Positions 9,408-32,665 of a DNA stretch of 64,000 nt are shown one piece after another (position 1 is the stretch's first letter; the number at the start of each line of letters is the position of its first letter). The notes beneath the pieces are model-generated. The model searched no databases. It saw only the letters and a list, made by a program, of their open reading frames with translations, and was not told where the DNA came from. The position numbers were made by a program, and so were the translations under genes. This DNA is from Candidatus Thalassarchaeaceae archaeon (GTDB taxonomy: Archaea > Thermoplasmatota > Poseidoniia > Poseidoniales > Thalassarchaeaceae). The DNA lies in the NCBI GenBank assembly GCA_045568075.1, contig JBJLBP010000001.1, forward strand, positions 377,232-441,231, written 5' to 3'.

Positions 9408-11603
9408 ATGGCGAGTAGCGTGTCCATTTCTGATTTCGACGAAGTCTATCGGGCACGCAGAATTCCTGCAATTGCCCTCCTTTTGCCGCTTTTACTATCC
9501 GTGGCTGCTCCAATTGCTATGGTGGCCCCTGTATCAGCTCAAGAGCCTGAAACGGGGCTTACACCCGAAGAAATCTGGTCATCAGAGTATGTGAATCAGA
9601 TATTCCCCTGGGGTCCACACGGTGATTTCGAACAACTTCAGTTCCGTGAGTATCACGACTACTTCTCAATGAAAGAGAGGATGCAGACTTTGGCTGCCTA
9701 CTACCCAGAATTCCTCCAGTTCCACGAAGGTCTTCTCGGCGGAGTAAACGCTCGTGGTGATGAAATGACATCTACTGAATACGAAGGCTGGTACTACAAC
9801 CACCCAAGTCCATGGATGAAGATTACCGGTAATGTTCAGGGTGGCGAGTACAATGAATACAATGATGACGATGGGAATTACGCTGATCGCCCAGATGTCA
9901 TGTTGGTCGGAAACCACCACGCTCGCGAGTGGATGTCCTACGAGGTACCGATGTTCTTCCTCGAAACTGTGGCGTTCTACTATGGTAAGGCGGCCATCGA
10001 CAATGATGGCGACGGCTTGCTAGACGAAGACGGCTGGGATGGAATTGACAACGATGGCGATTGTCTAAGTTTGAATTTATCAGCCCAAGATTACAACGGA
10101 GACGGCATCAATTGTGGTCCGGGAGACCTTGGCGTCGACGAAGACTTCTCTGAACAATTCATCACCGACATGGTCAACACTCGCGAAATTTACCTAATAC
10201 CAATGCTCAATGTCGATGGTAACCGCTACGACAGAGAAGAATACTGTGGCGAGACTGCTTGGGAGAATTGTAGAACTTCTGGTTGGAGAAAGAACCTACG
10301 TGACAATACGGTTACTGGTGTGACTCCAATTCCAGATGTTGATGAGCAAGTCGATCCATCCTGCGATGGAGTCGATTTGAACCGCAATTATCAGTTTGAG
10401 TGGGGAGCACCACTCGGAGCGACCGGACCTCTATTCCCTGGAATGTGTTATGCTGGAGAAGCCGGAGCAAACAACGACGTCTACAATGGTCCGGTCAATT
10501 ACGAAGATAACGATGGAGATGGTCTAGTCAATGAGGATCACGTCGACGGCAAGGACGACGATGCTGATGGTCAGACTGACGAAGATTGGATGGGTGGCAA
10601 TAGTGAGCCTGAGACCAAGTTCATCCAAGATCTGACTGAGATGAACGACGACGACGGAGACGGAGCTTCCGACTTCAAGTCCACACTTACATGGCATTCC
10701 TTCTCAGAACTTGTCTTGTGGCCATGGGGGCACTGCACGAATTGTGACAATCCTGACCAAGAATATCTCGAATACCATGGATACATGATGGGAGACATGA
10801 CTGAATACGCACCAATGCAGTCATCCGATCTCTACCCAACGACAGGCGATTTCTGCGATTGGCACTACGGCGTACACAACTCCTACTGCTATACAATCGA
10901 AATCGGCAATGCCTTCCACGAATACCCCGAGGATATTGCTCACATCGCCGTCAGAAACCTCGGCGTTCCGTTCTATATGATTGAGATTGCAGACGATCCA
11001 AGATATCGAGCCATAGTAGGGATAGAGAATACCACCTCGACACAATGGCTTGAGGAACCAAGCAATGTCACAGTTCCATCCAATGGCGACATACCAATCT
11101 CAATGTGTCTAGACAAGGCCTTCCCCTTCACTCCAGATATCAATCGTACACATCTAATGTGGAGATTCGTCGAGCCGAATAGACAACAGAATGACTACGG
11201 TCCAACTGAGTGGATCGATGTGCCATGGAGTATGTCGGCATTCATGGAGCCAGGAGAGCAGTGTATACTGCTCGATGGTTCCAATGGGACTAGGCTTGAG
11301 AGCTACATTCCACTACCTGACACATCTGTCGGTAAAATTCAGTACAAAGCAAAATTAGGTACTATAAACGGGGCTTTCCCCTTCACATATCCTGATTCGG
11401 ATACCGCGAATTATTACGAATTGTCGATTCCTTATCGTGCACCATTCGGCTCGGGAGTCTTTGCTCTACTAATGTTCGCCTTCATCGCGACGATGGTCTG
11501 GGGTGGACTGGGTTTCACACTACGCGCTATGTTCGATGATGAAGGCGGAGTGCTCGGATTACCTGAGGATCATAGCCACCTCGTCGACGAGGAGGACTCC
11601 TGA
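9408..11603 (+). CDS. Secreted/membrane-anchored M14 zinc carboxypeptidase with inserted Asp-rich calcium-binding-type repeats.
   Basis: M14 motifs HAREW (HxxE), GVDLNRNY and TWHSFSELVLWPWG are present. Three DxDxDG-like clusters (DNDGDGLLDEDGWDGIDNDGDC..., NDGDGLVNEDHVDGKDDDADGQTDED, NDDDGDGASD) are inserted. The N-terminal signal has an RR motif and there is a C-terminal hydrophobic anchor. Confidence 0.8.
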   Translation: MASSVSISDFDEVYRARRIPAIALLLPLLLSVAAPIAMVAPVSAQEPETGLTPEEIWSSEYVNQIFPWGPHGDFEQLQFREYHDYFSMKERMQTLAAYYPEFLQFHEGLLGGVNARGDEMTSTEYEGWYYNHPSPWMKITGNVQGGEYNEYNDDDGNYADRPDVMLVGNHHAREWMSYEVPMFFLETVAFYYGKAAIDNDGDGLLDEDGWDGIDNDGDCLSLNLSAQDYNGDGINCGPGDLGVDEDFSEQFITDMVNTREIYLIPMLNVDGNRYDREEYCGETAWENCRTSGWRKNLRDNTVTGVTPIPDVDEQVDPSCDGVDLNRNYQFEWGAPLGATGPLFPGMCYAGEAGANNDVYNGPVNYEDNDGDGLVNEDHVDGKDDDADGQTDEDWMGGNSEPETKFIQDLTEMNDDDGDGASDFKSTLTWHSFSELVLWPWGHCTNCDNPDQEYLEYHGYMMGDMTEYAPMQSSDLYPTTGDFCDWHYGVHNSYCYTIEIGNAFHEYPEDIAHIAVRNLGVPFYMIEIADDPRYRAIVGIENTTSTQWLEEPSNVTVPSNGDIPISMCLDKAFPFTPDINRTHLMWRFVEPNRQQNDYGPTEWIDVPWSMSAFMEPGEQCILLDGSNGTRLESYIPLPDTSVGKIQYKAKLGTINGAFPFTYPDSDTANYYELSIPYRAPFGSGVFALLMFAFIATMVWGGLGFTLRAMFDDEGGVLGLPEDHSHLVDEEDS

Positions 11604-13408
11604 TGTCCGAGGGTGGATCCGACGAATTTAGTGGACGCCTTGGGCTGATTTTCGCTACCATCGGTGCCGCTATCGGCACCGGTAACATCTGGCGCTTTCC
11701 AAGGATGGTCGGTGCCAACGGTGGCGGTTCCTTCCTAGTTCCGTGGGTCATCTTCCTCTTTCTTTGGTCGGTGCCGCTGATTATCGCCGAGTTCGCACTC
11801 GGAAAGCGAAGTCGCACTGGAACTGTTGGAACATTCCGTATCTTCGCAGGCAATCGCTTCGCTTGGATGGGGCTTTGGACAGCCTGGATTTCGACCGCTA
11901 TTGGATTCTATTACGCGGTCGTGACAGGCTGGTGTATCAATTACTTCCAGACCGCTATCCGTGGTGGTCTCGGCTCAGAGGTCGATACCGTCGAAGTCTG
12001 GAATTCCTTCCTCAACAATCCCCTCGAAGTCGTCTTCTTCCAAGCGATCGCTGTTGCCATCACAATGCTCGCCATCTGGAAGGGTGCGAAGGCCATCGAG
12101 AAGGTCAACGTCGGCCTGATGATTTCGCTCTTCGTTCTCCTCTTCGCTGCCCTCTTCCTCGCCTTCGTGATGGACTTAGATGACGGTAGCCTCGACGGCT
12201 TCGTCTACATGTTCAGCATCCAACCAGAATATCTCATGCAGCCGGAGACTTGGATTAACGGCCTCTCGCAATCAGCATGGTCCTGTTCGGCCGGAATGGG
12301 TATGGCGATTACTTACTCTGTCTATATGCGTAAGGACGAGGATACTACTCTGAACGCGGCGACGATGTGCCTTGCCAACAATAGCATCTCCATCATCGCT
12401 GGCCTCACCGTTATGATGGCAGTTTTCGCTGTGGTCGACGACCCCCTTGCAGCGGTAAGCGGAGGCTCCAGTGCAATCACCTTCCTCGTGCTCCCTGAAG
12501 TGTTCGCACAGGCACCAGGCGGTCCAATCGTTCAGTTGACGATGGTGACGATGTTCTTCCTCGCACTTTCCTTCGCTGCCCTCACATCGATGATTTCCAC
12601 CGTCGAACTATGTGTTCGCAACTTCGTCGATCACGGAATCGACCGCCCAAAGGCGGTCGGCTTCACTTCCATCGCAATTTTCCTCTTCGGTCTACCAAGT
12701 GCAGGGTTGTGGATATTGGTTGACGATTCGACCGGTGTGGTATTCCCTCAATTCCTCGAGGTGCAGGATCACATCTGGGGCTATGGCCTAATGTTCAGCG
12801 GACTGTTCATCGCTTACTCGATTTGGAAGTACGGATGGAACCGCTACCGAGTTTGGCAAGAAGAGAATGATATCGAAGGCTTTGATTTCCGCGATTACCT
12901 CGATCATGGAGTGTCCTCATTCCGCGACGATTTCATCAATACCGGAGACAATGATTGGTGGATTGGAAAGTGGTGGGATTACATCATGTATCTCGGATTC
13001 CCACTAATGTTCAGCGTCCTCATCCTCTCCTACTTTGGCGACATGCTCATCAATGTCGAAAACCCCTGGGATCCGACTAACGCTAACGGAATCTCGATCA
13101 TTCTGCTTTTCTGGGGTGTAACGGCAGGACTGTTCATCGGTCTCAACCGCTACATCCTCGTCAATCGCATGGTTCCGACGACCGATGATTTCTGGCTTCT
13201 AGCAATTCTATCTGGAAATTACAGACTTGAGCCGCGCCCGCTCTACAGAAATGTCCCTGAGGGCGCGGAAGTATCAATCGAAACTCTTCCCGGTGGCGAG
13301 GACCCATACATCGTCCAAGCTGGAGATAAATTGCCAGCCACTTTCGTGGATGATTATGGGGAGACGAGGTCGCACACTGGTGCGACCCTCGATGCAGAAA
13401 TCGTCTGA
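11603..13408 (+). CDS. Sodium-dependent transporter, neurotransmitter:sodium symporter (NSS/SNF) family.
   Basis: GNIWRFPRMVGANGGGSFLVPW is the NSS TM1 signature; about 12 TM helices; the start ATG overlaps the upstream TGA (TGATG). Confidence 0.85.
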   Translation: MSEGGSDEFSGRLGLIFATIGAAIGTGNIWRFPRMVGANGGGSFLVPWVIFLFLWSVPLIIAEFALGKRSRTGTVGTFRIFAGNRFAWMGLWTAWISTAIGFYYAVVTGWCINYFQTAIRGGLGSEVDTVEVWNSFLNNPLEVVFFQAIAVAITMLAIWKGAKAIEKVNVGLMISLFVLLFAALFLAFVMDLDDGSLDGFVYMFSIQPEYLMQPETWINGLSQSAWSCSAGMGMAITYSVYMRKDEDTTLNAATMCLANNSISIIAGLTVMMAVFAVVDDPLAAVSGGSSAITFLVLPEVFAQAPGGPIVQLTMVTMFFLALSFAALTSMISTVELCVRNFVDHGIDRPKAVGFTSIAIFLFGLPSAGLWILVDDSTGVVFPQFLEVQDHIWGYGLMFSGLFIAYSIWKYGWNRYRVWQEENDIEGFDFRDYLDHGVSSFRDDFINTGDNDWWIGKWWDYIMYLGFPLMFSVLILSYFGDMLINVENPWDPTNANGISIILLFWGVTAGLFIGLNRYILVNRMVPTTDDFWLLAILSGNYRLEPRPLYRNVPEGAEVSIETLPGGEDPYIVQAGDKLPATFVDDYGETRSHTGATLDAEIV

Positions 13409-13417
13409 GGGAATCAA

Positions 13418-13891
13418 TTGCTGGTCAGCGATGATTATCCTTGGTCAAAGTTGCTTCTTGAGTACGCGATGTATTGTGCTGTTGGCTGCATCAATGTGGC
13501 AATCTTCGCGGCCCTCTACTACTGGCTTCACGGGATGACTCTCTCAGAAAGTTTCCCAGCGGCTACCGCTTGGGCTATCGCCTACTTCGTAAGCTCCTGG
13601 CAGGCGCACTTCCTACATCGTTGGCTAACCTTTGAATCACCAACTGGTTACACCAAAAGCCTCTCTATAATGCTGGTAATCTATACCGTTCTGTGGGCCA
13701 TCTCAACTGCCTCTATAGCCTACTTCAGCGATACCCTCGGCTACAATCACATCTACACATGGGCAGCCAACACAGCCGCTTTCGGCTTCTTCGCTTTCCT
13801 CGCACTGCGTATCTTCGCTTTCCCGCTGTCCGATGGACGTGTTACTCGCTCAGAACGGCTCGAAGCCTATCGCGATAGCCGTAGGTCTTGA
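13418..13891 (+). CDS. GtrA-like small multipass membrane protein.
   Basis: Four TM helices of about 130-157 aa with a VGxxNxxxF pattern at the first helix (CAVGCINVAIFAALYY). Confidence 0.45.
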   Translation: MLVSDDYPWSKLLLEYAMYCAVGCINVAIFAALYYWLHGMTLSESFPAATAWAIAYFVSSWQAHFLHRWLTFESPTGYTKSLSIMLVIYTVLWAISTASIAYFSDTLGYNHIYTWAANTAAFGFFAFLALRIFAFPLSDGRVTRSERLEAYRDSRRS

Positions 13892-13917
13892 AGAACAATC
13901 GGCTGCCCCTCGACGCT

Positions 13918-15174
13918 ATGGCTCAGGGAGTTCGTGGCACGCGCGACTTCTATCCAGATGATATGCGCGTGCGCAACTGGCTCTTCGAGAGATTTCACTC
14001 GGCTGCACGTGCGCACGGGTTTGAGGAGTACGATGCTCCTGTGCTCGAGAGTGAGGATTTGTACACGCGCAAGGCAGGAGAGGAGATTGTCGGCCAGTTG
14101 TACAATTTTGAGGATAAAGGCGGGCGACGAGTAGCACTCCGGCCCGAGATGACGCCCTCGCTGGCAAGAATGGTAATGGCGAGGGCGGGCGCTTTGGCGC
14201 TCCCTATCAAGTGGTATTCGATCCCCCAGTGCTGGCGTTACGAGAGGACTCAGAGAGGACGTGGACGTGAGCACTACCAGTGGAATGTAGATGTCTGGGG
14301 GATGGATGGTGTCGAGGCCGATGCAGAACTTCTCTCCGTACTGGCACATTTCTTCGGCTCGGTCGGGCTCAGCTCAGAGGATTTGGTTATTCGAATCAGC
14401 AGTCGCAAGGTGCTTGAAGAGGTTCTAGGCTCACTCGGAATCGAGGGTGATACCTTCGCTAAGACTTGTGTTATTGTCGATAAAATGGATAAGCTTCCTG
14501 CTGATGCTATCGAGGCGCAGTTGGCTGAATTAGGACTTTCTTCCGATGCAACTTCAAAGATTCGTTCCGTCCTCGGTCTAACCGATTTGGAGGCTCTCGC
14601 TTCAGCTCTTGGTGGTGAGAGTGCGGCAGTAGTCGAATTAGGCGCGCTGTTCGCTCTGTGTGATTCCTACGGCATTTCTGATTGGGTTGCCTTCGATGCC
14701 TCGGTGGTTCGTGGGCTTGCTTACTACACCGGCCCTGTATTCGAGGCTCACGACCGGGCCGGCAAGCTTCGTGCGATTGTCGGTGGAGGTCGCTATGACA
14801 AGTTGATTGGAACTCTCGGTGGAAAGGACTTGCCCGCCACTGGCTTCGGCTTCGGGGACATGGTAGTGATGGAACTCCTCGCCGAGAAAGGATTGGTTCC
14901 TGATCTGTCTTTGGGTGTCGAAGATGTGGTCTTCGGAATGGGGTCTGAATTACGTGGGCCTGCGATGCAGGTTGCTGGGCGATTGCGCTCTAGTGGTCGG
15001 AGCGTAGATTTGGTTCTTGAAGACAAGAAAATGAAGTGGGTCTTCAAGCACGCTGAACGATGTGGTGCGGCCCGACTCGTGATGGTAATGCCCGATGAAT
15101 GGGCCGCTGGAAATGTGCGCATCAAAAATCTCGATACTGGTGAAGAGTCGACAGTCTCAGTCGAAGATCTTTGA
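13918..15174 (+). CDS. hisS: Histidyl-tRNA synthetase.
   Basis: GTRDFYPDD (motif 1 region) and the RYERTQRGRGREHYQWNVDVWG class II motif 2. The ORF track starts at TTG 13888; ATG 13918 (MAQGVRGTRDF) fits the conserved HisRS N-terminus. Confidence 0.9.
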   Translation: MAQGVRGTRDFYPDDMRVRNWLFERFHSAARAHGFEEYDAPVLESEDLYTRKAGEEIVGQLYNFEDKGGRRVALRPEMTPSLARMVMARAGALALPIKWYSIPQCWRYERTQRGRGREHYQWNVDVWGMDGVEADAELLSVLAHFFGSVGLSSEDLVIRISSRKVLEEVLGSLGIEGDTFAKTCVIVDKMDKLPADAIEAQLAELGLSSDATSKIRSVLGLTDLEALASALGGESAAVVELGALFALCDSYGISDWVAFDASVVRGLAYYTGPVFEAHDRAGKLRAIVGGGRYDKLIGTLGGKDLPATGFGFGDMVVMELLAEKGLVPDLSLGVEDVVFGMGSELRGPAMQVAGRLRSSGRSVDLVLEDKKMKWVFKHAERCGAARLVMVMPDEWAAGNVRIKNLDTGEESTVSVEDL

Positions 15175-15206: not shown

Positions 15207-16028
15207 TCACTCTTTTCGCTCAAAGCGACTAGCACCGATTGCTGCCATCGCAAGTGCGCCCAGTCCGGCTGCGAGTCCGAATCCGGGTAGAGCATCATCG
15301 ACTGCTCCACCTATTCCACCATCATCGCCGCCATTTCCCGGTCCTACATCTGAGGCATTGATTACAGGGAAGTTTGCTTCTACTGAGTAATTATCCTCGT
15401 TATTTGAGTAGAACATAGTGAATTCTCCAGTGCAATCGAAAATCAAACATTCAATGCCACTAATACCCGGTGCAGAGTACTCAATTCGCACTACTGGTTC
15501 TTCTCCACTCTTGTTCCAACGATACATTGTTTCATTGACTGGAATATTCCATTGTATGGTAAAGTCCTCGTAATTATTTACAGTCTCAACAGATTTGACA
15601 AATTGAGAAATATCCATGGTTCCTCTAGACAATGTGATGGTCAAATCCTTGCATTCAGATGTATCAGTGCAATCAGCAGAATATATTCTGAATGACATTT
15701 CTACTGTGATTGTTCCATTTTCATTGATGTACATATCTTCCTTGAAGGTCTCACCAGATTGGATACGACAAGAAATGTCAACCTCAACCTGTGTTCCTTG
15801 AGAGAATTCCTTCATGCCATAGCCCTCTGATGCCGACCCCGCCGAGTCATTGACATCGAAGTGAGTCCAGCACTGATCCAATTGACTGGTTCCCCAGAAA
15901 TGCATGTGTGGGTTTTCCACCGAGGGCTGCTTCGGATCATCCGCTTGGGCGCTGGCTGGTGCAGCGATAGTTCCGCATGCTAGAATGAGCACGAGGCCAA
16001 GAGCCTGAATCCTGCGACTACCCTGCAT
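15207..16028 (-). CDS. Secreted protein with a PGF-CTERM archaeosortase sorting signal; lower GC than its surroundings.
   Basis: N-terminal signal peptide. C-terminal Gly/Asp-rich linker, then PGFGLAAGLGALAMAAIG and basic RFERKE, matching the PGF-CTERM tripartite architecture. Confidence 0.6.
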   Translation of the reverse strand: MQGSRRIQALGLVLILACGTIAAPASAQADDPKQPSVENPHMHFWGTSQLDQCWTHFDVNDSAGSASEGYGMKEFSQGTQVEVDISCRIQSGETFKEDMYINENGTITVEMSFRIYSADCTDTSECKDLTITLSRGTMDISQFVKSVETVNNYEDFTIQWNIPVNETMYRWNKSGEEPVVRIEYSAPGISGIECLIFDCTGEFTMFYSNNEDNYSVEANFPVINASDVGPGNGGDDGGIGGAVDDALPGFGLAAGLGALAMAAIGASRFERKE

Positions 16029-23163: not shown

Positions 23164-26100
23164 ATGGAACACGGTTCAGTGCGCTTAATCAGCAAAGCGC
23201 CGCGAGCCCGAATTTCACTACCAATTCTGATTGTAGCACTATTTCTTCTTCCAACTCTCGCCCCTTTCGCTGCCGTCAGTGGAGAGGCGAGAATCGAATC
23301 TGAGGACTTCGCAATTCTCAATGAGCTCAGCGAAGTCCTCGACCAACGCGAGCAGGTGGTCAGCAGCGATACTGTGAGCAAACTTGCTGGACCTTTACTC
23401 GATCAAGTTCGGGTCGGTGTACAGGAGACTTCAGTCGCCGATCCACTCCATGATATCGACGAGGCTCTCGACGAGGTATCAATGGTCGAAACCGCTGCAC
23501 CACAAGTCATTCATCCCGAACCTTACATCATTCTGACTGACGAAAATAGCCGCCCTCCTGGCGAAGTCAGAACCATTTGGTCGACTCTTTTCAATCTCAC
23601 AGATTACGTCATTTGGACACGATATGTAGACGATGAGGGTAATGTCGTCGAGCAATCTGAGACCATAACCTTCCTCACATCTCTCCTATCTCTTTTCGAC
23701 TCTGAGACCGAATTTTTGCTTCATCAGGTCGACATCGACCAGGATGGTGATGACGACATTCAGGTTGGTCTCAGCATCGAGATCAGTGACCCCGAACTCG
23801 ATGGAACCACACTTTCAGTCGCGCCTCAACTCGATTACAAGATCAGTGTGCTGCCCTCAAGCATGACTGATTCCGATTGGGAAAATCTAGAAACTCTAGA
23901 AGTGAGTCTTCTCAAAGCATTCGCGTATTCCGATGGAATCCTTACCGAGGGTGAATCATACGTTTGGGTTATTGATTCAAAATTCACTCATACACCTTAC
24001 GATTTCACCCTCGGAGTTGGTCTCGAACGATTCTACTTCGATCTCTCAGAAGCGGGGGCCGATTTCCTCCTATCGATTTTCAATGCGCTATCCTTCGGCG
24101 TGTTCAACGGTGGTGATGAATCTGGAATTACAATCGCTTCAATCGCCGCTCCATACCAGATATCAATAGACAATTCCGGCCAGACCGAATGTCCAGATCG
24201 CTACTCGCCGATTGAACTCACAACTCTTCCATCCAGTCAAATCTCCTGTGGAGTCACAGCAGGCTTCGGTTACGTCCACTATTCTCCTCCAAATATCGAA
24301 GATGAACGAGATGTCTGGGAGGTGGCCTACATTGAAGCCGCAATTCACCCTAATCGTCTCTCCACCACCCTCCCTGAACAGCTTGATCTCACAATCCGAA
24401 CTGATAGCACGATGGCCGACGGCACGGGCAGTGCTGGTGAAAATGGCCTGACAACCGTCGAGTACTGGGCCGATGAGCGCGCAGACCTCCACATACACTT
24501 CCACGAGAACCGCTCAGAGGTTCCACCCGAGAATGCCGATGGAACTTATGGTAACTCAACCGACTCCATCGGCTGGCTGCGCGGAATGCCTGCAGGCAGC
24601 CTCACCACAGAGGAGATCGATCGCACTTTCACCATGCTCGGTTCAAAGTCCGAGCCTCAACTACCTGGTGGCCAACCGAATCAACTCGGCCTCATCATCG
24701 GTGTCAAGAATTTCACCCGCGATACATCGCAGAACGTCGACGACCCCTCTCTCCCAGTCAATCCAGCATACCCGCCAAAGACTCTCGTTCTGGTAAGGTC
24801 AGTCCAATCGCTTGAGGAGGTGGATTATCATTCTTGGATGAAACGTGGTGGCGCGGCCACCGACCATCGGCGGATCGAAATTACTGCTCAAGACTTACCG
24901 ACCGCCGTCGTGCTCTTTGGCTCATTTGAGTTAGGTGGGACTGAAGAGGCAGACACAAGTCTCGATTCGGCACAAAATCTTGATTTCATGTCGAGAATCT
25001 TCGATGTTGTCCTGATCAACATAGTCGACCTCTTCCTCGATATCGGCACTATTCTGAACGACATTCCATCTGCCACAGTCGACGTCATCAGCGGTGGAGT
25101 CGGCGGTTCGGGTGGCCTAACAGGACAGACTCTTCACCTATTGATGAATGATCATTGGAGAGCCGATCGACAGGCTAGGTCAATCTCAGAAATCGGCCTG
25201 CAGATCGGTTCAAGCTCGCATCCTACGATGCCTGGCGATCATCTGATCCTCGCAAAAGACAGACAGTTGGAGACAGTTCAAGGGCGTCAGGGTCCGGTGG
25301 TGCCGATGGTGGTAGTAGCTGCGAGTTTACGTTTCAGTGGTCTGAGCCAGTTCACTCTTATCGATGATCTCGAGTCGGAATCCCAACAGGTTTCACTCCT
25401 GACTTCGTCGGAAAAACAGTTCTCATTCCTTTACATCGATCACAAACCGAATGATCTCAGCGGCGCAGCCCATCAAGGCGTCCGAATATCCGATATTCCG
25501 GACAATCTCTCCGCCGAACTCACACCCCAACTCGCAACATACCAAGCTAGTTCCTCTATCGATAGTATCAGTTACACTGGTATTGATGGTGACCAACGGC
25601 AGGCGACTCACGTTCTCGATTTGCCTGCCGAGTTTGAGATTGAATTTGGCGATGTGACTACTTGGAGCGCTTCATCGCCGATTTCTTCCATTCATGCCCA
25701 ACTCACAGATTCTACAAATCCTGTGACGATGGGCGGCGATCACTTCCTTTTCCATCACGAGCCGTCCGATGGTAGCTCGACTATCTCAACTCGTATTTCG
25801 GGATTGCAAGAGGTTGGCTGGCGAGCACCAGCCGAACCAGGTGCCAGTGGAGCAATTGGTCGTGGCACCGCTTTCATGACCGCTGCCGGCGACCGCACGA
25901 TGAGCATCAATGTCGATCATGCGCCGACTCAGGATGAGGGGGGCTTGTCGGCGCTCGTTCTCATCGATCCACTTCCATCCACTATCTCGGTCGATATTCC
26001 AACGGGAGCCGATGCAGGAAACAGCCTCGTCTTCCCCGAATTGAACACGACTCAAGGTGTCGCTGGCGTGGCTTTCTTCCTTGGCGGTTTTGCCGATCTC

Positions 26101-27531
26101 GGTCGCTCTGTGAACACGGTCCTCGCTGGTGTGACAAGTGAAATTTCGACAGGATCCGATGGTGGCAATGGTTCATTCTCTTACGGTCTTCAGCTCGATG
26201 CAGACAGTAATTTTGACCTGATTTTCGAAGCCAGCCATGGAAATGGCACTGCGGATGCCCCACCTTGGGTACACGGAATCGCGCTGAACGCAGCACCTTC
26301 AGGAATATCGGATGGCTTCCATATCCGTGGATGGATTCCAGATTTACCTCCGATAATCGATATCTCGGTCAGTCGAACCCCGACTTCAACCGGTGAAGAA
26401 TGGGCAATCGCCATGGGTTTGGATGGATGGTTGCCCGCGCGCAGTGAATTCATGCTGAACTCGCGCGGTATCAACGGTCAGGACCTGATGATGACACTGC
26501 AAGGCTTGACCGTTGGTGAATCAACTGCACTAGGACTCGATTCGGAATTCTTGATCCGAGAAACAAGTGGTGGGATTACCGAAGTAACAACAACGACTCA
26601 CTTCGTGATGTCGAATAGACTCGATTGGATTCATGCTCTTCTAATCAATCGAGAGGCCGGCGCACGGACGGAGATGCTGATCAATGACATTCCCGAATCC
26701 ATCGATTTGCGCGCCAGTCTAGGCACGTCCATATCGCTGGATATGACCGTGCCAGATGCATATCGTCGAGCCGGTCCTGCCGTGGACTCGATGATGATGC
26801 AACAGATGCAATGGATGGACGGTTCTTGGTGGCCGGCTACGATTTTCCTGACCGACGTCCCTGACGCGATTAATCTCACGACAGAGCCAGATCTCGATTT
26901 TGACATCACCAAAAGTCTCGCATTCCAAGGGACTCCTGTACTCGACTTCTCCGCCTCGGCTGATGGAATGTCACTCTACATCGAAGCCAACGGCCGCGCT
27001 ATCAACAGTCGAGGCGAAATCATCCTCCTCGCCGAGGGCATGACCGATCGAATGGTCATCAAACCGACTGAGGATTATGGTCTCGCGATTCGCAGTGGAG
27101 GCGATGGAGTCGATCGAATCTATTTGCGCGCCTCCAATATGCCGACAACTCCTCCTGTTGTCCTCGAAGAAATGGAGGCGCTTGGCGAGAATTTGCGAAG
27201 CGCGACGATTCATGTCATTGAGATAGTCGGCCCATACAGCGTCATTGAGATAGAAGATGTACAAGGTGGACGAATCGTTGCATCCGCGCGCGCGACGGCT
27301 GAAGTCGAAGCCATTGGTATGACCTTTGATTTGCGTGGCGTTCTACTCGACGCTCAGACCACCGGAGGAGTACCGACTGGAACCAGTCTTGGGGTAAACG
27401 GTCTCGCTTCCGATCTCTCGCTGCTGAATCTAATCCCTGGATTTGAAGGCTCCACCCATCACATAATTGTCCCGGAGCCTCTCTCATCCGGTGTGCTAAC
27501 ATTCTGCGCTACATTCCTGGGAGGTGACTAA
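23164..27531 (+). CDS. Giant (1455 aa) secreted or N-terminally anchored surface protein B with no recognisable domain.
   Basis: N-terminal signal/anchor LPILIVALFLLPTLAPFAAVSG; an uninterrupted 4.4-kb ORF with coding-like codon usage; Asp/Thr/Ser-rich beta-type composition; TAA stop at 27529-27531. Confidence 0.6.
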   Translation: MEHGSVRLISKAPRARISLPILIVALFLLPTLAPFAAVSGEARIESEDFAILNELSEVLDQREQVVSSDTVSKLAGPLLDQVRVGVQETSVADPLHDIDEALDEVSMVETAAPQVIHPEPYIILTDENSRPPGEVRTIWSTLFNLTDYVIWTRYVDDEGNVVEQSETITFLTSLLSLFDSETEFLLHQVDIDQDGDDDIQVGLSIEISDPELDGTTLSVAPQLDYKISVLPSSMTDSDWENLETLEVSLLKAFAYSDGILTEGESYVWVIDSKFTHTPYDFTLGVGLERFYFDLSEAGADFLLSIFNALSFGVFNGGDESGITIASIAAPYQISIDNSGQTECPDRYSPIELTTLPSSQISCGVTAGFGYVHYSPPNIEDERDVWEVAYIEAAIHPNRLSTTLPEQLDLTIRTDSTMADGTGSAGENGLTTVEYWADERADLHIHFHENRSEVPPENADGTYGNSTDSIGWLRGMPAGSLTTEEIDRTFTMLGSKSEPQLPGGQPNQLGLIIGVKNFTRDTSQNVDDPSLPVNPAYPPKTLVLVRSVQSLEEVDYHSWMKRGGAATDHRRIEITAQDLPTAVVLFGSFELGGTEEADTSLDSAQNLDFMSRIFDVVLINIVDLFLDIGTILNDIPSATVDVISGGVGGSGGLTGQTLHLLMNDHWRADRQARSISEIGLQIGSSSHPTMPGDHLILAKDRQLETVQGRQGPVVPMVVVAASLRFSGLSQFTLIDDLESESQQVSLLTSSEKQFSFLYIDHKPNDLSGAAHQGVRISDIPDNLSAELTPQLATYQASSSIDSISYTGIDGDQRQATHVLDLPAEFEIEFGDVTTWSASSPISSIHAQLTDSTNPVTMGGDHFLFHHEPSDGSSTISTRISGLQEVGWRAPAEPGASGAIGRGTAFMTAAGDRTMSINVDHAPTQDEGGLSALVLIDPLPSTISVDIPTGADAGNSLVFPELNTTQGVAGVAFFLGGFADLGRSVNTVLAGVTSEISTGSDGGNGSFSYGLQLDADSNFDLIFEASHGNGTADAPPWVHGIALNAAPSGISDGFHIRGWIPDLPPIIDISVSRTPTSTGEEWAIAMGLDGWLPARSEFMLNSRGINGQDLMMTLQGLTVGESTALGLDSEFLIRETSGGITEVTTTTHFVMSNRLDWIHALLINREAGARTEMLINDIPESIDLRASLGTSISLDMTVPDAYRRAGPAVDSMMMQQMQWMDGSWWPATIFLTDVPDAINLTTEPDLDFDITKSLAFQGTPVLDFSASADGMSLYIEANGRAINSRGEIILLAEGMTDRMVIKPTEDYGLAIRSGGDGVDRIYLRASNMPTTPPVVLEEMEALGENLRSATIHVIEIVGPYSVIEIEDVQGGRIVASARATAEVEAIGMTFDLRGVLLDAQTTGGVPTGTSLGVNGLASDLSLLNLIPGFEGSTHHIIVPEPLSSGVLTFCATFLGGD

Positions 27532-28144: not shown

Positions 28145-31100
28145 ATGCTGAAAGGCGACTCAATGGGGCAGCGACTCATGACCAAACGCATCGCGGTTGC
28201 GATACTCGGGATTTTCCTCCTATCTCTCGCTCCGGCTGGTGGGGTTCATGTTGAGTCAACTGGGGATTCGGAGGAAATACTGGACCCAGTTGTGAATCGT
28301 ATTGGGATTGCACCTGATCCAGATTCAATCCAAGATCTTGGTTCACCACGAGTCCTTGAGGGTCTCGAGAGGACTCGTGAGAATACGGCCGACTCTACAA
28401 TCGGCGTTTACACCGAACTCGGCCTCATTCCATCGGTTCACTTGCCACGAGCTCTAGCTGAGCCTCGAAGCGACTTGGCGATGGTTATCGTCGATGGAGA
28501 TGTTGGCATCTGGGATGCTCGTATTGCTGTCGAGGAAGCGGCTGATGTTGAGATTCGCTCGACAATTCCTCCATCGGGATTCCTCGTGCAGGGTGATGAA
28601 AAGCAGATTTCATTGCTCGCTGAGGAATCGATAGTAGTCGCAGTCCACTCTGTCTCGTCCGGCCTGCTCGCCCATCCGCTTCTGCGGCTGGTCGAAGAAG
28701 GCCCGATGATGGTCGAGTTGCTCGGCTGGAAGGATGACGAATTACAACGCCACGCCGAGCCAGGCCTCGGTCTGGAAGATTCGTTAGAAGCAGTTGCAGA
28801 ACTTTGGTTGACCGATTCATGGAGCCCAGAAGAGGGGCGTGTATGGGGCGTCGTTGATATCTCCGATATCGGCAGTGTCCTACAGCACCCCTCAGTCGCT
28901 TGGGTTGCGCCGCTACCGGTGCTAGAAACCAAAAATGACAATGCCCGAACCCACATGGGAATCGATACGGTCGACTCCTTCTTCGTCACTGATCTAGATG
29001 GCTCCGGCCAAACTGTTGCCGTCGGCGATTCGGGCATTGACCATGATCATGGGGATTTCAACAACCGAATCGTCGGTCGAACTTCTGTCACCCCTGGAGA
29101 TTCCTCGACCGCTGATCCATCGGATGGTCACGGAACCCACGTGGCTTGCACAGTGCTGGGTTCCGGAATGCGCAGCAGCGGGACTTACAACGGCGTCGCT
29201 CCCGGTGCTAGCCTCTACTTCCAAGCAATGGAGGATGATGACACAGGTGCTCTCTACAGTTACGGCATTAACAGCATGTTGAATTCTGCTTACAATGCTG
29301 GTGCCCGCCTGCACACCAATAGCTGGGGAGCGGGCAGTGGACACGGATCATATTCGACCCAGTCCGAGGATGCGGACGACCGCACCTCGACTTGGGATCA
29401 ATACTGGAGTCACGAGGGTATGACTGTGCTCTTCGCGGCTGGCAACGAGCGTAATGACGGAGTTTCACCACCTGGTACTGCGAAGAATGTCATCACAGTT
29501 GGTGGCCACAAGAATCGCTACAGTGGCTCTCCTGACGAGATGTATTACTGGAGTAGCCGCGGTCCAACTGACGATGGCCGTCTCAAGCCCGACCTTGTAG
29601 GACCGGGAGACGGTGTTCGATCTTGCCTCGCTCAAGAGGCTCAGGATGCAGATTCAGGATGGTCAAACAACTGGTACATCGAGTACAGCGGCACTTCCAT
29701 GTCGACTCCAGCCGCTGCCGGAGCCGCCGCCCTCGTGCGCGAGTATCTGATGGAAGTGGCAAATCGACCGGCTCCACAGGGTGCTTTGGTCAAGGCACTC
29801 CTGATTCTTGGCGCCGAGGACATGGGAAATCGTAACATTCCGAATAATGACGAGGGCTGGGGAAGAGTCAATCTGATTAATTCACTCATCCCCGATAGCG
29901 ACGAAGGTATCTTCGTCGATGATCGTAGTAGAATTCGAAGTGGCGAGACCCAAGAATACACCTTCGAAATCACTCGCGCTGGTGAGCCTCTGAAGGTGGT
30001 CCTCGCTTGGTCGGACTATCCTGGTTCATCATCTTCAAGCAATCAATTACGTAACGATTTGAATCTTGAAGTGATTCATCCGAGCGGTGGAACTACCTAC
30101 AAAGGAAATGTCTTCAATTCAGGGCGTTCAATCGCTGGTGGCTCCTTCGATTCAAAGAATAATGTCGAGGTTGTTCTAGTCGATAATGCCGCTGTCGGGA
30201 CATGGACTGTCCGTGTCAAGGACGATTATCACGGCGGCAGCCGCACCTGGCAGCCATTCGCTCTCGCGGTTCGTGGAGTGAACGTCAACGATCTCTCACC
30301 AGACCCAACTTTTGCTCCTGATGTATCGGTTACTCCAACCATTCCTCAGATTGGAGACTCGGTTCAGATTGGAATCACTCTCGAGAATCTAGGAGCAGGA
30401 TCTGTCTCAGATCTCGAAGTAATGGCGCGTGCAGATGGGTCTCACATCTCGACCCAAACCATCTCTATGACTCCGGGTGAATCGGTCGGAATGACTTGGA
30501 ATTGGACACCGACAAGCGAGGGACTGATAGATCTGTCATTCCACATTGATCCAAACGAACTTGTCGACGAATCCAACGAAGGAAATAACCTACTCACACA
30601 CACAGTAATCATCAGTGCACCCGGAGTTCGAGTGACTTCGGATGAACCATTCATGACTCTTGGGGAGGCTGACGACAGCTCAACCACTTGGTCACTTACT
30701 CTGACGAATACCGCCCTCTTCGAGACCAATGCAACAATCGAAGCCTCCTCTCCTATTCGACAGAGCGATGGCCTCGAATTCGATTGGTTCTACTCTTTCA
30801 CATCGAATACGTTCAACCTGCTGGAAGCGGAATCTGTTGAGATTGGATTCACTCTGATCCATCCAGCTCCTCCGCAGCCTGGAACCTATGTCATGACGAT
30901 TACAGGAACTGATGTCGAGAATGAGATTGAATCGATGCTCGACATCTACTTCGAGGTGCCCATTCTTGCAGCCGCCGATGTTGAAATCACATCAGGCCAA
31001 GTCCAAGTCAGTCCAATTTCTAAGACTCAAATTCAGGTCTTCGTAACCAATGTGGGCAATGGCCCTCAGACCTACGATGTCGAACTCAGCTCTCCTGCGG

Positions 31101-32665
31101 GCTGGCACCTCGGCCTCGACGTGCTCGGAGCCTTCGCAGGTTCCTCACACGGCTCGACTGGAACTCTCTTCGTCGGCGAGCGCCGGACAATTGACATCAC
31201 GGTGAATCCACCCGGCGCGATGATCCCAGCCGGCTCGGTATTCGACGCCGGCTTGACGATCCATTCTCGCGTCAGTAGTGATTCTTGGTCGGTACCGATT
31301 CCTCTCGAGGTCATCATCATCGACCAACTTTCGACCACACCAATCAGTGATGGCATTGAGCACGAAGTCTCGCCCGATTCGACTCTCGTGCTCGATATCG
31401 ATTTCCTCAACAACGGTAATCGAGACCTGACGATGACCCCGTATTCGCGAGGTATCCCATCGGGTTGGACTGTAGTAGGAGGTCTTGACACACTCTTCGC
31501 ACCTACCGGCTCAACGACTAGTTGGTCGGTGACTCTGCAAGGCAATGGCAGGGCGACCAGCGGCGACTTCAAGCTCCGCTTCGCCACTGATGACGGCTTC
31601 GCTATCGACTGGAACAGAACCATCGATGTCCTCTCAGCCGCGATACCCGCTCTGACTTTCCACCAAGTCGTTCTTGGCGACGGCACATCTGCTGACACAC
31701 CACTAGGAGTCGGAGCCCATCCCGTCGGAACAGGCTTCGATTTGGCTTGGGAGGTCGAGAATGAAGGTACCTCAACTTGGAAGCCGACCACGAGTATCAT
31801 CATCCCTGAAGGTGATTGGTTGGGGACTTGCCCAACTACACCATCCTCTCTCGCTCCCGGCGCGAGTAGCATCATTTGGTGCACCGTGACGATTCCACTA
31901 TCGGCTGAGGCCGGGAGTGAACCATACGTCACTCTCAGGATGGAAGGCGAAGGTATCGAGATCGAGAATTCGATCTCGCTACGCGTAGACTCTGTCTCCG
32001 CGGTGACTTGGAATCTGCGAACCCAAGCCCAGGCACACGAGGGCTACCCTATCCAGATGACTGTGGATATTCAGAACGTTGGTAATGCGCAAGTGAATCA
32101 TCGCTTAGATGTCACAGCACCATCTGGCTGGAACGTCTTCATCAATGACGAGGTCCTAGTCATTCTGAGTCCCGGCGAATCACGTTCGATCGTCATTGAA
32201 TTCACCCCCAATGCTGGCAGCGATGGAATCATCGAGATGTCACTTCGCTATGGCGAGGACATTCAGGGGTCCACCTTCTCCTTCGATGTCGATGTGATGC
32301 CCGGTAAGGGCGGTGATAGCAGCCTTGGTTCAACACTCATTCCAATCTTCTTCATCCTCATTATCGCAATCATCGGTGGGGCCGGATTCTATGTCTTCAA
32401 GCAGCGCGGAGGCAAACTCGATTCCATCATCTCAAAAGAGGCTGTGAGCAAGATTTCCGAGTCGCTGAAACTTAGTGAAGAAGAGAGCGGATCTGGTATC
32501 GAATGTTGGGTTTGTAGTCGTGATATATTCGAGGGTAAAGCTCACGCTTGTGGCAATTGTGGAGCCCGCTATCACCAAGCCGGACAGATTCGAGGATGCG
32601 ATATCCTCTCCGTTGGCCGCTGTTTGCACTGTAACGCAGATTCGAGCGAGCTCGTCGAGGCTTGA
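28145..32665 (+). CDS. Membrane-anchored S8 subtilisin-like serine protease D (1506 aa) with many CARDB-like beta-sandwich repeats, a TM helix and a cytoplasmic C-terminal double zinc ribbon.
   Basis: Catalytic triad contexts VAVGDSGIDHDHGDF (Asp), DGHGTHVACTV (His) and GTSMSTPAAAGAAALV (Ser). At least six repeats of the (V/I)xNxGN..xxxL type. TM LIPIFFILIIAIIGGAGFYVF. Tail CWVCS-x11-CGNC...C-x7-CLHC. A signal peptide (ILGIFLLSLAPAGG) after alternative starts at 28163 or 28178. Confidence 0.8.
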   Translation: MLKGDSMGQRLMTKRIAVAILGIFLLSLAPAGGVHVESTGDSEEILDPVVNRIGIAPDPDSIQDLGSPRVLEGLERTRENTADSTIGVYTELGLIPSVHLPRALAEPRSDLAMVIVDGDVGIWDARIAVEEAADVEIRSTIPPSGFLVQGDEKQISLLAEESIVVAVHSVSSGLLAHPLLRLVEEGPMMVELLGWKDDELQRHAEPGLGLEDSLEAVAELWLTDSWSPEEGRVWGVVDISDIGSVLQHPSVAWVAPLPVLETKNDNARTHMGIDTVDSFFVTDLDGSGQTVAVGDSGIDHDHGDFNNRIVGRTSVTPGDSSTADPSDGHGTHVACTVLGSGMRSSGTYNGVAPGASLYFQAMEDDDTGALYSYGINSMLNSAYNAGARLHTNSWGAGSGHGSYSTQSEDADDRTSTWDQYWSHEGMTVLFAAGNERNDGVSPPGTAKNVITVGGHKNRYSGSPDEMYYWSSRGPTDDGRLKPDLVGPGDGVRSCLAQEAQDADSGWSNNWYIEYSGTSMSTPAAAGAAALVREYLMEVANRPAPQGALVKALLILGAEDMGNRNIPNNDEGWGRVNLINSLIPDSDEGIFVDDRSRIRSGETQEYTFEITRAGEPLKVVLAWSDYPGSSSSSNQLRNDLNLEVIHPSGGTTYKGNVFNSGRSIAGGSFDSKNNVEVVLVDNAAVGTWTVRVKDDYHGGSRTWQPFALAVRGVNVNDLSPDPTFAPDVSVTPTIPQIGDSVQIGITLENLGAGSVSDLEVMARADGSHISTQTISMTPGESVGMTWNWTPTSEGLIDLSFHIDPNELVDESNEGNNLLTHTVIISAPGVRVTSDEPFMTLGEADDSSTTWSLTLTNTALFETNATIEASSPIRQSDGLEFDWFYSFTSNTFNLLEAESVEIGFTLIHPAPPQPGTYVMTITGTDVENEIESMLDIYFEVPILAAADVEITSGQVQVSPISKTQIQVFVTNVGNGPQTYDVELSSPAGWHLGLDVLGAFAGSSHGSTGTLFVGERRTIDITVNPPGAMIPAGSVFDAGLTIHSRVSSDSWSVPIPLEVIIIDQLSTTPISDGIEHEVSPDSTLVLDIDFLNNGNRDLTMTPYSRGIPSGWTVVGGLDTLFAPTGSTTSWSVTLQGNGRATSGDFKLRFATDDGFAIDWNRTIDVLSAAIPALTFHQVVLGDGTSADTPLGVGAHPVGTGFDLAWEVENEGTSTWKPTTSIIIPEGDWLGTCPTTPSSLAPGASSIIWCTVTIPLSAEAGSEPYVTLRMEGEGIEIENSISLRVDSVSAVTWNLRTQAQAHEGYPIQMTVDIQNVGNAQVNHRLDVTAPSGWNVFINDEVLVILSPGESRSIVIEFTPNAGSDGIIEMSLRYGEDIQGSTFSFDVDVMPGKGGDSSLGSTLIPIFFILIIAIIGGAGFYVFKQRGGKLDSIISKEAVSKISESLKLSEEESGSGIECWVCSRDIFEGKAHACGNCGARYHQAGQIRGCDILSVGRCLHCNADSSELVEA

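Follow-up and report, generated by a model that had tools for sequence, protein, structure and literature searches.

A window of 64,000 nucleotides from a Candidatus Thalassarchaeaceae archaeon (assembly GCA_045568075.1, contig JBJLBP010000001.1, positions 377,232 to 441,231; all coordinates below refer to this window) carries two overlapping genes on the + strand, which are the subject of this analysis. The first gene (9408–11603) encodes a 731-residue M14 zinc carboxypeptidase resembling carboxypeptidase T (CPT), recognized by Pfam, by its match to a PDB sequence and by an AlphaFold2 (AF2) model. The second gene (11603–13408) encodes a 601-residue Na+-dependent transporter of the neurotransmitter:sodium symporter (NSS/SNF) family, recognized by Pfam PF00209, NCBIfam NF037979 and its motif in the first transmembrane helix (TM1). 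Identical copies of the peptidase are annotated in metagenome-assembled genomes of Candidatus Poseidoniales/Thalassarchaeaceae (Marine Group IIb archaea). The junction reads GAC TCC TGA, then TG, and the peptidase stop codon (11601–11603) shares one nucleotide with the transporter ATG (11603–11605). A TGATG overlap (11601–11605, + strand) had been reported in a first-pass annotation of this DNA and was found as described there.

A Shine-Dalgarno-like sequence, GAGGAGGA (11589–11596, + strand), is located 7–14 nucleotides 5′ of the transporter ATG, within the last peptidase codons (…D-E-E-D…), and probably acts as the Shine-Dalgarno sequence of the NSS gene. The acidic C terminus of the peptidase, …VDEEDS (11582–11603), is encoded by GACGAGGAGGAC, which doubles as this motif. 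A purine-rich motif of the same type lies ahead of the NSS start codon at 65 of 67 related loci, so the conservation of the acidic end of the peptidase may partly reflect a constraint at the RNA level. The overlap of the genes, together with a Shine-Dalgarno sequence inside the last peptidase codons, would favor co-translation of both products.

The peptidase scored 105.3 bits on the Pfam model Peptidase_M14 (PF00246; cut-off 21.6), and all three sequence hallmarks listed in the first-pass annotation, HAREW, DLNRNY and WHSFSE, were recovered in the alignment to CPT. The best PDB sequence match was CPT of Thermoactinomyces vulgaris (1obr, M14A funnelin type; E = 3.5e-20), with an identity of only about 22%. 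The zinc ligands His-171 and Glu-174 (HAREW) and His-430 (WHSFSE) are present in the CPT alignment, as are Asn-325/Arg-326 (DLNRNY; Asn-144/Arg-145 in carboxypeptidase A, CPA), Arg-294 (CPA Arg-127), Tyr-476 (Tyr-248) and the catalytic Glu-498 (Glu-270). The zinc, catalytic and substrate-binding residues are thus those of CPT, and the active-site residues were nearly invariant in an alignment of 80 sequences. The AF2 model, which was built on an alignment of 80 diverse sequences, had a predicted local distance difference test score (pLDDT) of 81 and a predicted template modeling score of 0.79, with values above 90 pLDDT in the core. In a Foldseek comparison the core matched CPT with E = 4e-24 and a target-normalized template modeling score of 0.84, which identifies the funnelin fold and makes CPT the best match in fold as well as in sequence. 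The catalytic domain was delimited to residues ~81–535 (9648–11012, + strand) from the CPT alignment, the invariant columns, the core with pLDDT >90 and the S1′ pattern. The archaeal peptidase showed no sign of a long pro-segment. Missing from CPT are two extensive Asp-rich insertions of about 57 and 56 residues, a third Asp cluster, a β-rich stalk and a transmembrane helix.

At the S1′ position, equivalent to CPA residue 255, the peptidase has Cys-483 (10854–10856). By analogy with CPA and carboxypeptidase B (CPB), this neutral residue suggests that neutral or hydrophobic, not basic, C-terminal residues are the substrates. Cys is also found in the relative P0241, most distant relatives have Asp or Glu, and others have Gly, Thr or Asn. 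On the same analogy an acidic residue would be CPB-like and point to basic substrates. The substrate preference may have shifted across relatives while the partnership with the NSS transporter stayed.

The protein begins with a probable signal peptide or signal-anchor (residues 1–44; 9408–9539, + strand) that comprises a basic RARR motif, a hydrophobic stretch and the sequence VSA/QE. This segment is weakly conserved (entropy 1.18) and would direct export of the catalytic domain. The catalytic domain is followed by a β-rich stalk domain (residues ~540–675; 11025–11432, + strand), for which AF2 predicted β-strands at residues 562–674 and no Pfam family was matched, then by a single transmembrane helix and finally by the acidic tail.

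The transporter scored 160 bits on PF00209 (cut-off 27) and 82 bits on NF037979 (cut-off 50), and it carries the TM1 motif GTGNIWRFP, which places it in the NSS/SNF (SLC6) family. NSS proteins encoded next to M14 genes form a group of their own, with 44–48% identity to the window transporter compared with 24–36% for other NSS proteins. These values are consistent with a long co-inheritance of the M14-NSS pair.

MetS is the single-transmembrane small subunit that is needed by bacterial NSS transporters of the MetP type. The bacterial precedent is MetPS of Corynebacterium glutamicum, in which an NSS transporter is paired with such a subunit (Trotschel 2008, as cited in PMC6233128). When the full-length peptidase was scanned against NCBIfam, its C-terminal helix weakly matched the model "MetS family NSS transporter small subunit." The helix and its flanks (residues 675–712; 11430–11543, + strand) read PYRAPFGSGVFALLMFAFIATMVWGGLGFTLRAMFDD. 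For the tail alone, the MetS models were the top NCBIfam matches, with 17.3–19.4 bits on NF033493 (E = 6e-4 to 3e-3), below the cut-off of 25, and a further match to NF033494. No PGF- or PEF-CTERM sorting signal was found in the tail by the NCBIfam scan, in which it matched MetS models only. With a 56-residue tail as query, PF16951 was the only Pfam match (14.4 bits, cut-off 26.2, E = 0.03), and with the 30-residue core the only Pfam match was the unrelated COX7a (E = 0.55). MetS was the top NCBIfam match for nine of ten tails from relatives 35–45% identical to the peptidase. Distant tails scored 11–22 bits on the MetS models, and those of P0302 and L097 reached about 20.7 bits. Ten control transmembrane helices, comprising plain anchors of relatives, the peptidase's own signal helix and further such helices encoded in the window, gave no match to the MetS models at E ≤ 10.

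The resemblance was further assessed by profile comparison. An alignment of 18 diverse tails matched one of 23 genuine MetS proteins in hhalign with 96.1% probability (P = 3.3e-9) over 34 columns, with the WGG motif in register. For calibration, 46-column windows were slid along the transporter alignment, which covers 12 real transmembrane helices of the same species. The best score of these windows against MetS was 18.4 (26% probability) and the median was 9.0, compared with 26–36 for windows holding the tail helix. A self-built MetS hidden Markov model (44 Bacillaceae sequences and one from Acinetobacter) was rejected as a test because it was too narrow, and was replaced by the curated models and the calibrated hhalign comparison.

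Genuine MetS sequences from annotated records, MDGSSITMMVVGMVIIWGGLAASIAHAVKK… (Priestia) and MNTSAIVMLIISMVFVWGGLALSILHLTKHPEELDE… (Acinetobacter), have the core [IV]WGGL..[ST][IL] in common. In the window tail, …SGVFALLMFAFIATMVWGGLGFTLRAMFDDE…, the Trp is at the same distance from the start of the helix as in MetS. VWGGL was invariant across about 76 species tails, and conservation of the helix is confined to one face (MF..IA..VWGGL..TL..MF). Its entropy was 0.65, compared with 1.18 for the signal helix and 0.89 for the adjacent domains, where a lower value means stronger conservation; the helix is conserved like an interface. Like MetS (NF033493/NF033494, PF16951 MaAIMP_sms), the tail has a single transmembrane helix with a WGGL core set equally deep, has charged residues behind the helix and is encoded tightly beside an NSS gene, often with overlap. 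The N-out/C-in topology of MetS is also predicted for the tail. MetS is a free protein of 26–62 residues in the 45-protein set recovered (nearly all 33–41), whereas the window helix is part of the last ~50 residues of a 731-residue peptidase. Sequence similarity to MetS is by itself not a proof. The tail probably works like MetS and is related to it, without being itself a MetS.

Close and distant relatives were used to follow the gene pair, as were metagenomic loci. The close relatives comprised 80 GTDB species-representative loci with 70–98% identity. An NSS gene directly followed the M14 gene in 76/76 Thalassarchaeaceae loci with a contig of sufficient length; the genes overlapped by 1 nucleotide in 27 of the related loci and by 4 nucleotides in 16, and otherwise were separated by a gap of ≤31 nucleotides. 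Distant relatives came from an exhaustive search of representatives and were reduced to representatives of clusters at 50% identity. Many relatives with 30–50% identity and different C-terminal domains also end in a VWGG[FL] helix followed by a basic stretch. Among 80 metagenomic M14 loci, all 17 open reading frames with a WG[GS]L tail had an NSS gene 0–54 nucleotides downstream on the same strand. No NSS gene was found at the other 63 loci, 55 of which had complete C termini and most of which were bacterial.

Among the distant relatives, an NSS gene was located directly downstream of the WGGF-tailed P0250, P0252, P0255, P0269, P0281 and P0310 and at the P0278-like loci L090 and L091. For P0258, which also has a WGGF tail, the NSS gene is two genes away. 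The two small genes between M14 and SNF at this locus (L172:6237–7072), one of them unannotated and the other a weak HEPN match, are possibly a nucleotidyltransferase/HEPN toxin-antitoxin pair inserted into a tight M14-SNF pair. No NSS gene was present at the loci of the plain-anchor subfamily members P0267, P0271, P0254 and P0270 or at L103, L122 and L125. The tail of L103 passed the PEF-CTERM cut-off (24.1 versus 23 bits) and that of L122 matched the same model below the cut-off; tails of this type would mark generic surface anchors. Counted by lineage, the NSS gene was adjacent in roughly 9/10 lineages with a WGG tail versus 0/7 without it (Fisher p about 4e-4, uncorrected for phylogeny). 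The type of tail thus tracks the adjacent NSS gene across relatives. A neighbor-joining tree of the catalytic domains interleaved the class with WGG tail and NSS gene and the class with plain tails, which argues against simple clade inheritance of the link. The interleaving suggests an ancestral state with both the WGG tail and the NSS gene, followed by several joint losses of the two. The other neighbors of the distant NSS-linked M14 loci were unrelated to each other.

The first-pass annotation had proposed a coupled unit of exoproteolysis and amino acid import and had made this dependent on conservation of the pairing. The pairing was kept in the Thalassarchaeaceae and metagenomic loci counted above and in most relatives of 30–45% identity with unrelated neighbors, which supports the proposal. 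The anchor helix of the peptidase is similar to MetS, the small NSS subunit, a feature absent from the first-pass annotation, and the link between the two proteins therefore seems to go beyond joint translation. That the M14-NSS pair is a conserved functional operon we regard as highly probable.

We propose that the two genes form one functional unit, a two-part machine for harvesting peptide ends. The M14 enzyme would be exported by means of its N-terminal signal and stand on the outer face of the membrane atop its β-rich stalk, where it would cut C-terminal amino acids off peptides. Its MetS-type C-terminal helix would pack against the NSS transporter encoded downstream, which would make the peptidase an extracellular subunit of its transporter. 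The freed amino acids would then arise at the mouth of the transporter and be imported with Na+. We lean, by a modest degree, toward this full mechanism, a carboxypeptidase fused to a MetS-like docking helix and acting as a transporter subunit in a prokaryotic analogue of ACE2-B0AT1; the physical complex, the channeling of substrate and the identity of the substrates are its predicted parts.

ACE2 belongs to peptidase family M2 and the archaeal enzyme to M14; there is no detectable sequence relationship between them, so the likeness would be convergent. The closest functional analogue is mammalian ACE2-B0AT1 (SLC6A19), which occurs in the human gut. Features in common with it and with collectrin-B0AT1 are a zinc carboxypeptidase ectodomain on a stalk, a single type I transmembrane helix and an NSS/SLC6 partner that is a Na+-amino acid symporter. 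The carboxypeptidase ACE2 ends in one transmembrane helix, and the NSS member B0AT1 contacts this helix and the neck domain (PMC7164635). The two proteins have been proposed to form a digestive metabolon (PMC3408045). The eukaryotic ACE2 and B0AT1 genes are unlinked, whereas the archaeal genes are adjacent and the archaeal complex is predicted only.

Several observations weigh against a docked peptidase. All MetS matches were below the curated cut-off (11–22 bits versus 25), and the query was a short hydrophobic helix. The self-built MetS model gave the window tail 2.3 bits and produced a false positive of 18.5 bits in an unrelated Haloarcula protein without WGG or an NSS neighbor. Identity between the window transporter and the NSS proteins that partner MetS in Priestia and Acinetobacter is only 24–26%, and the window transporter falls outside their clade. 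The gene order is reversed, since MetS of Priestia and Acinetobacter is encoded downstream of the NSS gene and the window helix upstream, unlike bacterial metP-metS. P0265 has a VWGGF tail, yet no NSS gene was found within its roughly 6-kb contigs. The adjacency in 76/76 loci, taken by itself, carries little weight, because the whole Thalassarchaeaceae neighborhood (pgm-mscS / M14-NSS-gtrA-hisS) is syntenic. The tree of catalytic domains is a neighbor-joining tree without support values.

The low scores, the reversed order and the P0265 tail would suit an arrangement in which the two proteins are operon partners only, co-expressed for protein scavenging and forming no complex. The helix would then be a plain anchor, WGG would serve self-association or membrane insertion, and the likeness to MetS would be convergent or due to chance; short transmembrane profiles can indeed yield spurious matches of about 18 bits. 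A plain anchor, however, leaves unexplained why the type of tail is linked to NSS adjacency across interleaved branches and why relatives without an NSS gene have plain or PEF-CTERM-type anchors. It also does not account for the one-faced conservation of the helix, which exceeds that of the flanking domains, or for control transmembrane helices that never match MetS. We consider this arrangement unlikely, if still a serious competitor.

Docking of the helix to the transporter could also serve another end. The helix might bind the NSS protein for its stability, trafficking or gating, with the products of the peptidase not being the main NSS substrates. ACE2 and collectrin are mainly trafficking chaperones for B0AT1 (PMC7164635, PMC3408045), and the S1′ residue varies in NSS-linked relatives (Cys, Asp, Glu, Gly, Thr, Asn) while the linked NSS proteins stay 44–48% identical. 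An exopeptidase that releases single amino acids beside an amino acid-type symporter is nevertheless the most economical functional match, and the fact that the pair has long been inherited together amid unrelated neighbors suggests a shared pathway; a purely chaperone-like or regulatory role seems improbable. Least probable is a non-nutritional role, in which the peptidase trims proteins of the cell envelope or S-layer or matures one particular secreted peptide, and the transporter handles some other solute, for instance an osmolyte. NSS members do transport many kinds of solute, but the fold is of the digestive CPT/CPA type, and Marine Group II (MGII) archaea are seen as heterotrophs that degrade proteins and peptides, with "carboxypeptidase A" listed as one of the peptidases they transcribe at high levels (PMC9723583). 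A secreted S8 subtilase of 1,506 residues is likewise encoded in the window, and the pairing persists across very different archaeal lineages.

The fusion of a peptidase to a MetS-like helix beside an NSS gene would be a new combination of known kinds, a statement that rests on computation. In a literature search no paper linking MGII, carboxypeptidase and NSS symporter was found, and no open text on the mechanism of MetS. MGII archaea, which rank with the most abundant heterotrophs of surface seawater, are considered to feed on proteins and peptides. A docked peptidase, if real, would show how they catch single amino acids before diffusion carries these off into very dilute seawater. It would also extend to prokaryotes the idea of a peptidase-SLC6 "metabolon," so far represented by mammalian ACE2-B0AT1, and for MetS, a small subunit that is still poorly understood, it would define a function, that of a docking helix. 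The system should be tractable, since it consists of a pair of neighboring genes, has an invariant WGG in a helix of 25 residues and offers natural controls in plain-anchor relatives that have no adjacent NSS gene. More tentatively, and with some doubt on our part, the arrangement may be an ancient and widespread archaeal "metabolon," in which M14 is an obligate extracellular subunit of NSS by means of a MetS-homologous helix and MetS-type helices in general are portable modules that dock extracytoplasmic domains onto NSS transporters.

Two further loci bear on accessory subunits of NSS transporters. At L178:7412–9594, a second, divergent SNF gene stands in tandem after the M14-linked one; its product is 26% identical to the window NSS, among the set of non-linked NSS proteins. 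It is followed, with a 4-nucleotide overlap, by a gene for a 239-residue protein, the N-terminal transmembrane helix of which (AWVVLIIISLILYGGSLRHILIALK) matched the MetS model over the full length with 16 bits (E = 0.007). This protein may carry a further MetS-like helix joined to a larger domain, and is thus possibly a second example of a MetS-type docking module. On Haloferax volcanii pHV4 (L081:3939–4262), a 107-residue protein with one N-terminal transmembrane helix and a charged soluble tail is encoded 1 nucleotide past an NSS gene. It gave no MetS match and may represent another type of accessory subunit for NSS transporters.

The Asp-rich segments of the peptidase were analyzed as well. 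Strict DxDxDG motifs were found in a motif scan at residues 198, 367, 383 and 414 and variants at 214 (DNDGDC) and 228 (DYNGDG), which together make up the three clusters that had been annotated. Insert A (residues 193–249; 9984–10154, + strand), DNDGDGLLDEDGWDGIDNDGDC…DYNGDG…GVDED, is absent from CPT and kept in distant relatives. Insert B (residues 342–397; 10431–10598, + strand), …EDNDGDGLVNEDHVDGKDDDADGQTDEDWMGG, is likewise absent from CPT. The third cluster, NDDDGDGASDF (residues 413–423; 10644–10676, + strand), is located by the motif scan just ahead of the zinc-ligand strand WHS and stands in place of "NSRVVGGKQQIK" in the CPT alignment. The clusters had been placed between the zinc ligand and the substrate-binding region. 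This applies to the first, which lies between HxxE and Arg-294, and not to the second and third, which lie between Asn-325/Arg-326 and the zinc ligand His-430. Relative to CPT all segments are insertions inside the catalytic domain, and neither the CPT alignment nor the AF2 model assigned any of them to a pro-region.

The structure prediction that had been suggested for placing the loops modeled them as coil within the M14 fold, with a pLDDT of about 74–77 for insert A, about 75–88 for insert B from residue 352 on and <50 for residues 337–351. The inserts had been called an unusual decoration of the fold and likened to thrombospondin type 3 or dockerin repeats, and both descriptions call for qualification. 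The Asp, Gly and Glu columns of insert B were invariant across 20 aligned relatives that share 32% identity on average. The inserts thus characterize a large archaeal M14 subfamily, in which they are conserved, and are not a peculiarity of the window genome. No Pfam model (TSP_3, dockerin or EF-hand) matched the inserts at E ≤ 10, and TSP_3/dockerin was rejected as a family assignment. As in the Ca2+-binding loops of thrombospondin type 3, dockerin and EF-hand-like proteins, a DxDxDG…D/E spacing recurs in the inserts, which hold four or more strict copies of the motif and were modeled as coil; unlike those loops, they sit inside the M14 catalytic domain and do not form a separate repeat domain. 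Because of the DxDxDG motif, the inserts are most likely Ca2+-stabilized surface loops that would rigidify the exposed catalytic domain in seawater.

Downstream of the gene pair, an open reading frame for a GtrA-like membrane protein (TTG start, Pfam GtrA_DPMS_TM 29 bits) begins 9 nucleotides past the NSS stop (13418 on). Its stop is overlapped by 4 nucleotides by a 428-residue open reading frame with a TTG start at 13888, which by eye resembles histidyl-tRNA synthetase. The transcription unit may run from 9408 to 15174. The order M14-NSS-GtrA-hisS-like was kept in ~60/80 Thalassarchaeaceae loci, a count limited by contig ends. A 273-residue protein (15207–16028, − strand) without a Pfam family has a hydrophobic N-terminal segment and is probably secreted. 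Its C terminus, …ALPGFGLAAGLGALAMAAIGASRFERKE, looks like a PGF-CTERM archaeosortase-type sorting signal, unlike the MetS-like tail of the peptidase; the sole database match of this protein was weak (Heimdall-CTERM, 12.6 bits). Between 20456 and 35413 lies a series of very large surface-protein genes, including PKD/Ig-like proteins, a 1,455-residue open reading frame without a Pfam match (23164–27531) and the S8 subtilase, which has CARDB and fn3-like domains (28145–32665). This run fits an extracellular protein-degrading lifestyle. Farther downstream, three Proton_antipo_M genes, encoding NuoL/M/N-like or Mrp-type antiporter subunits, follow each other between 41858 and 47450.

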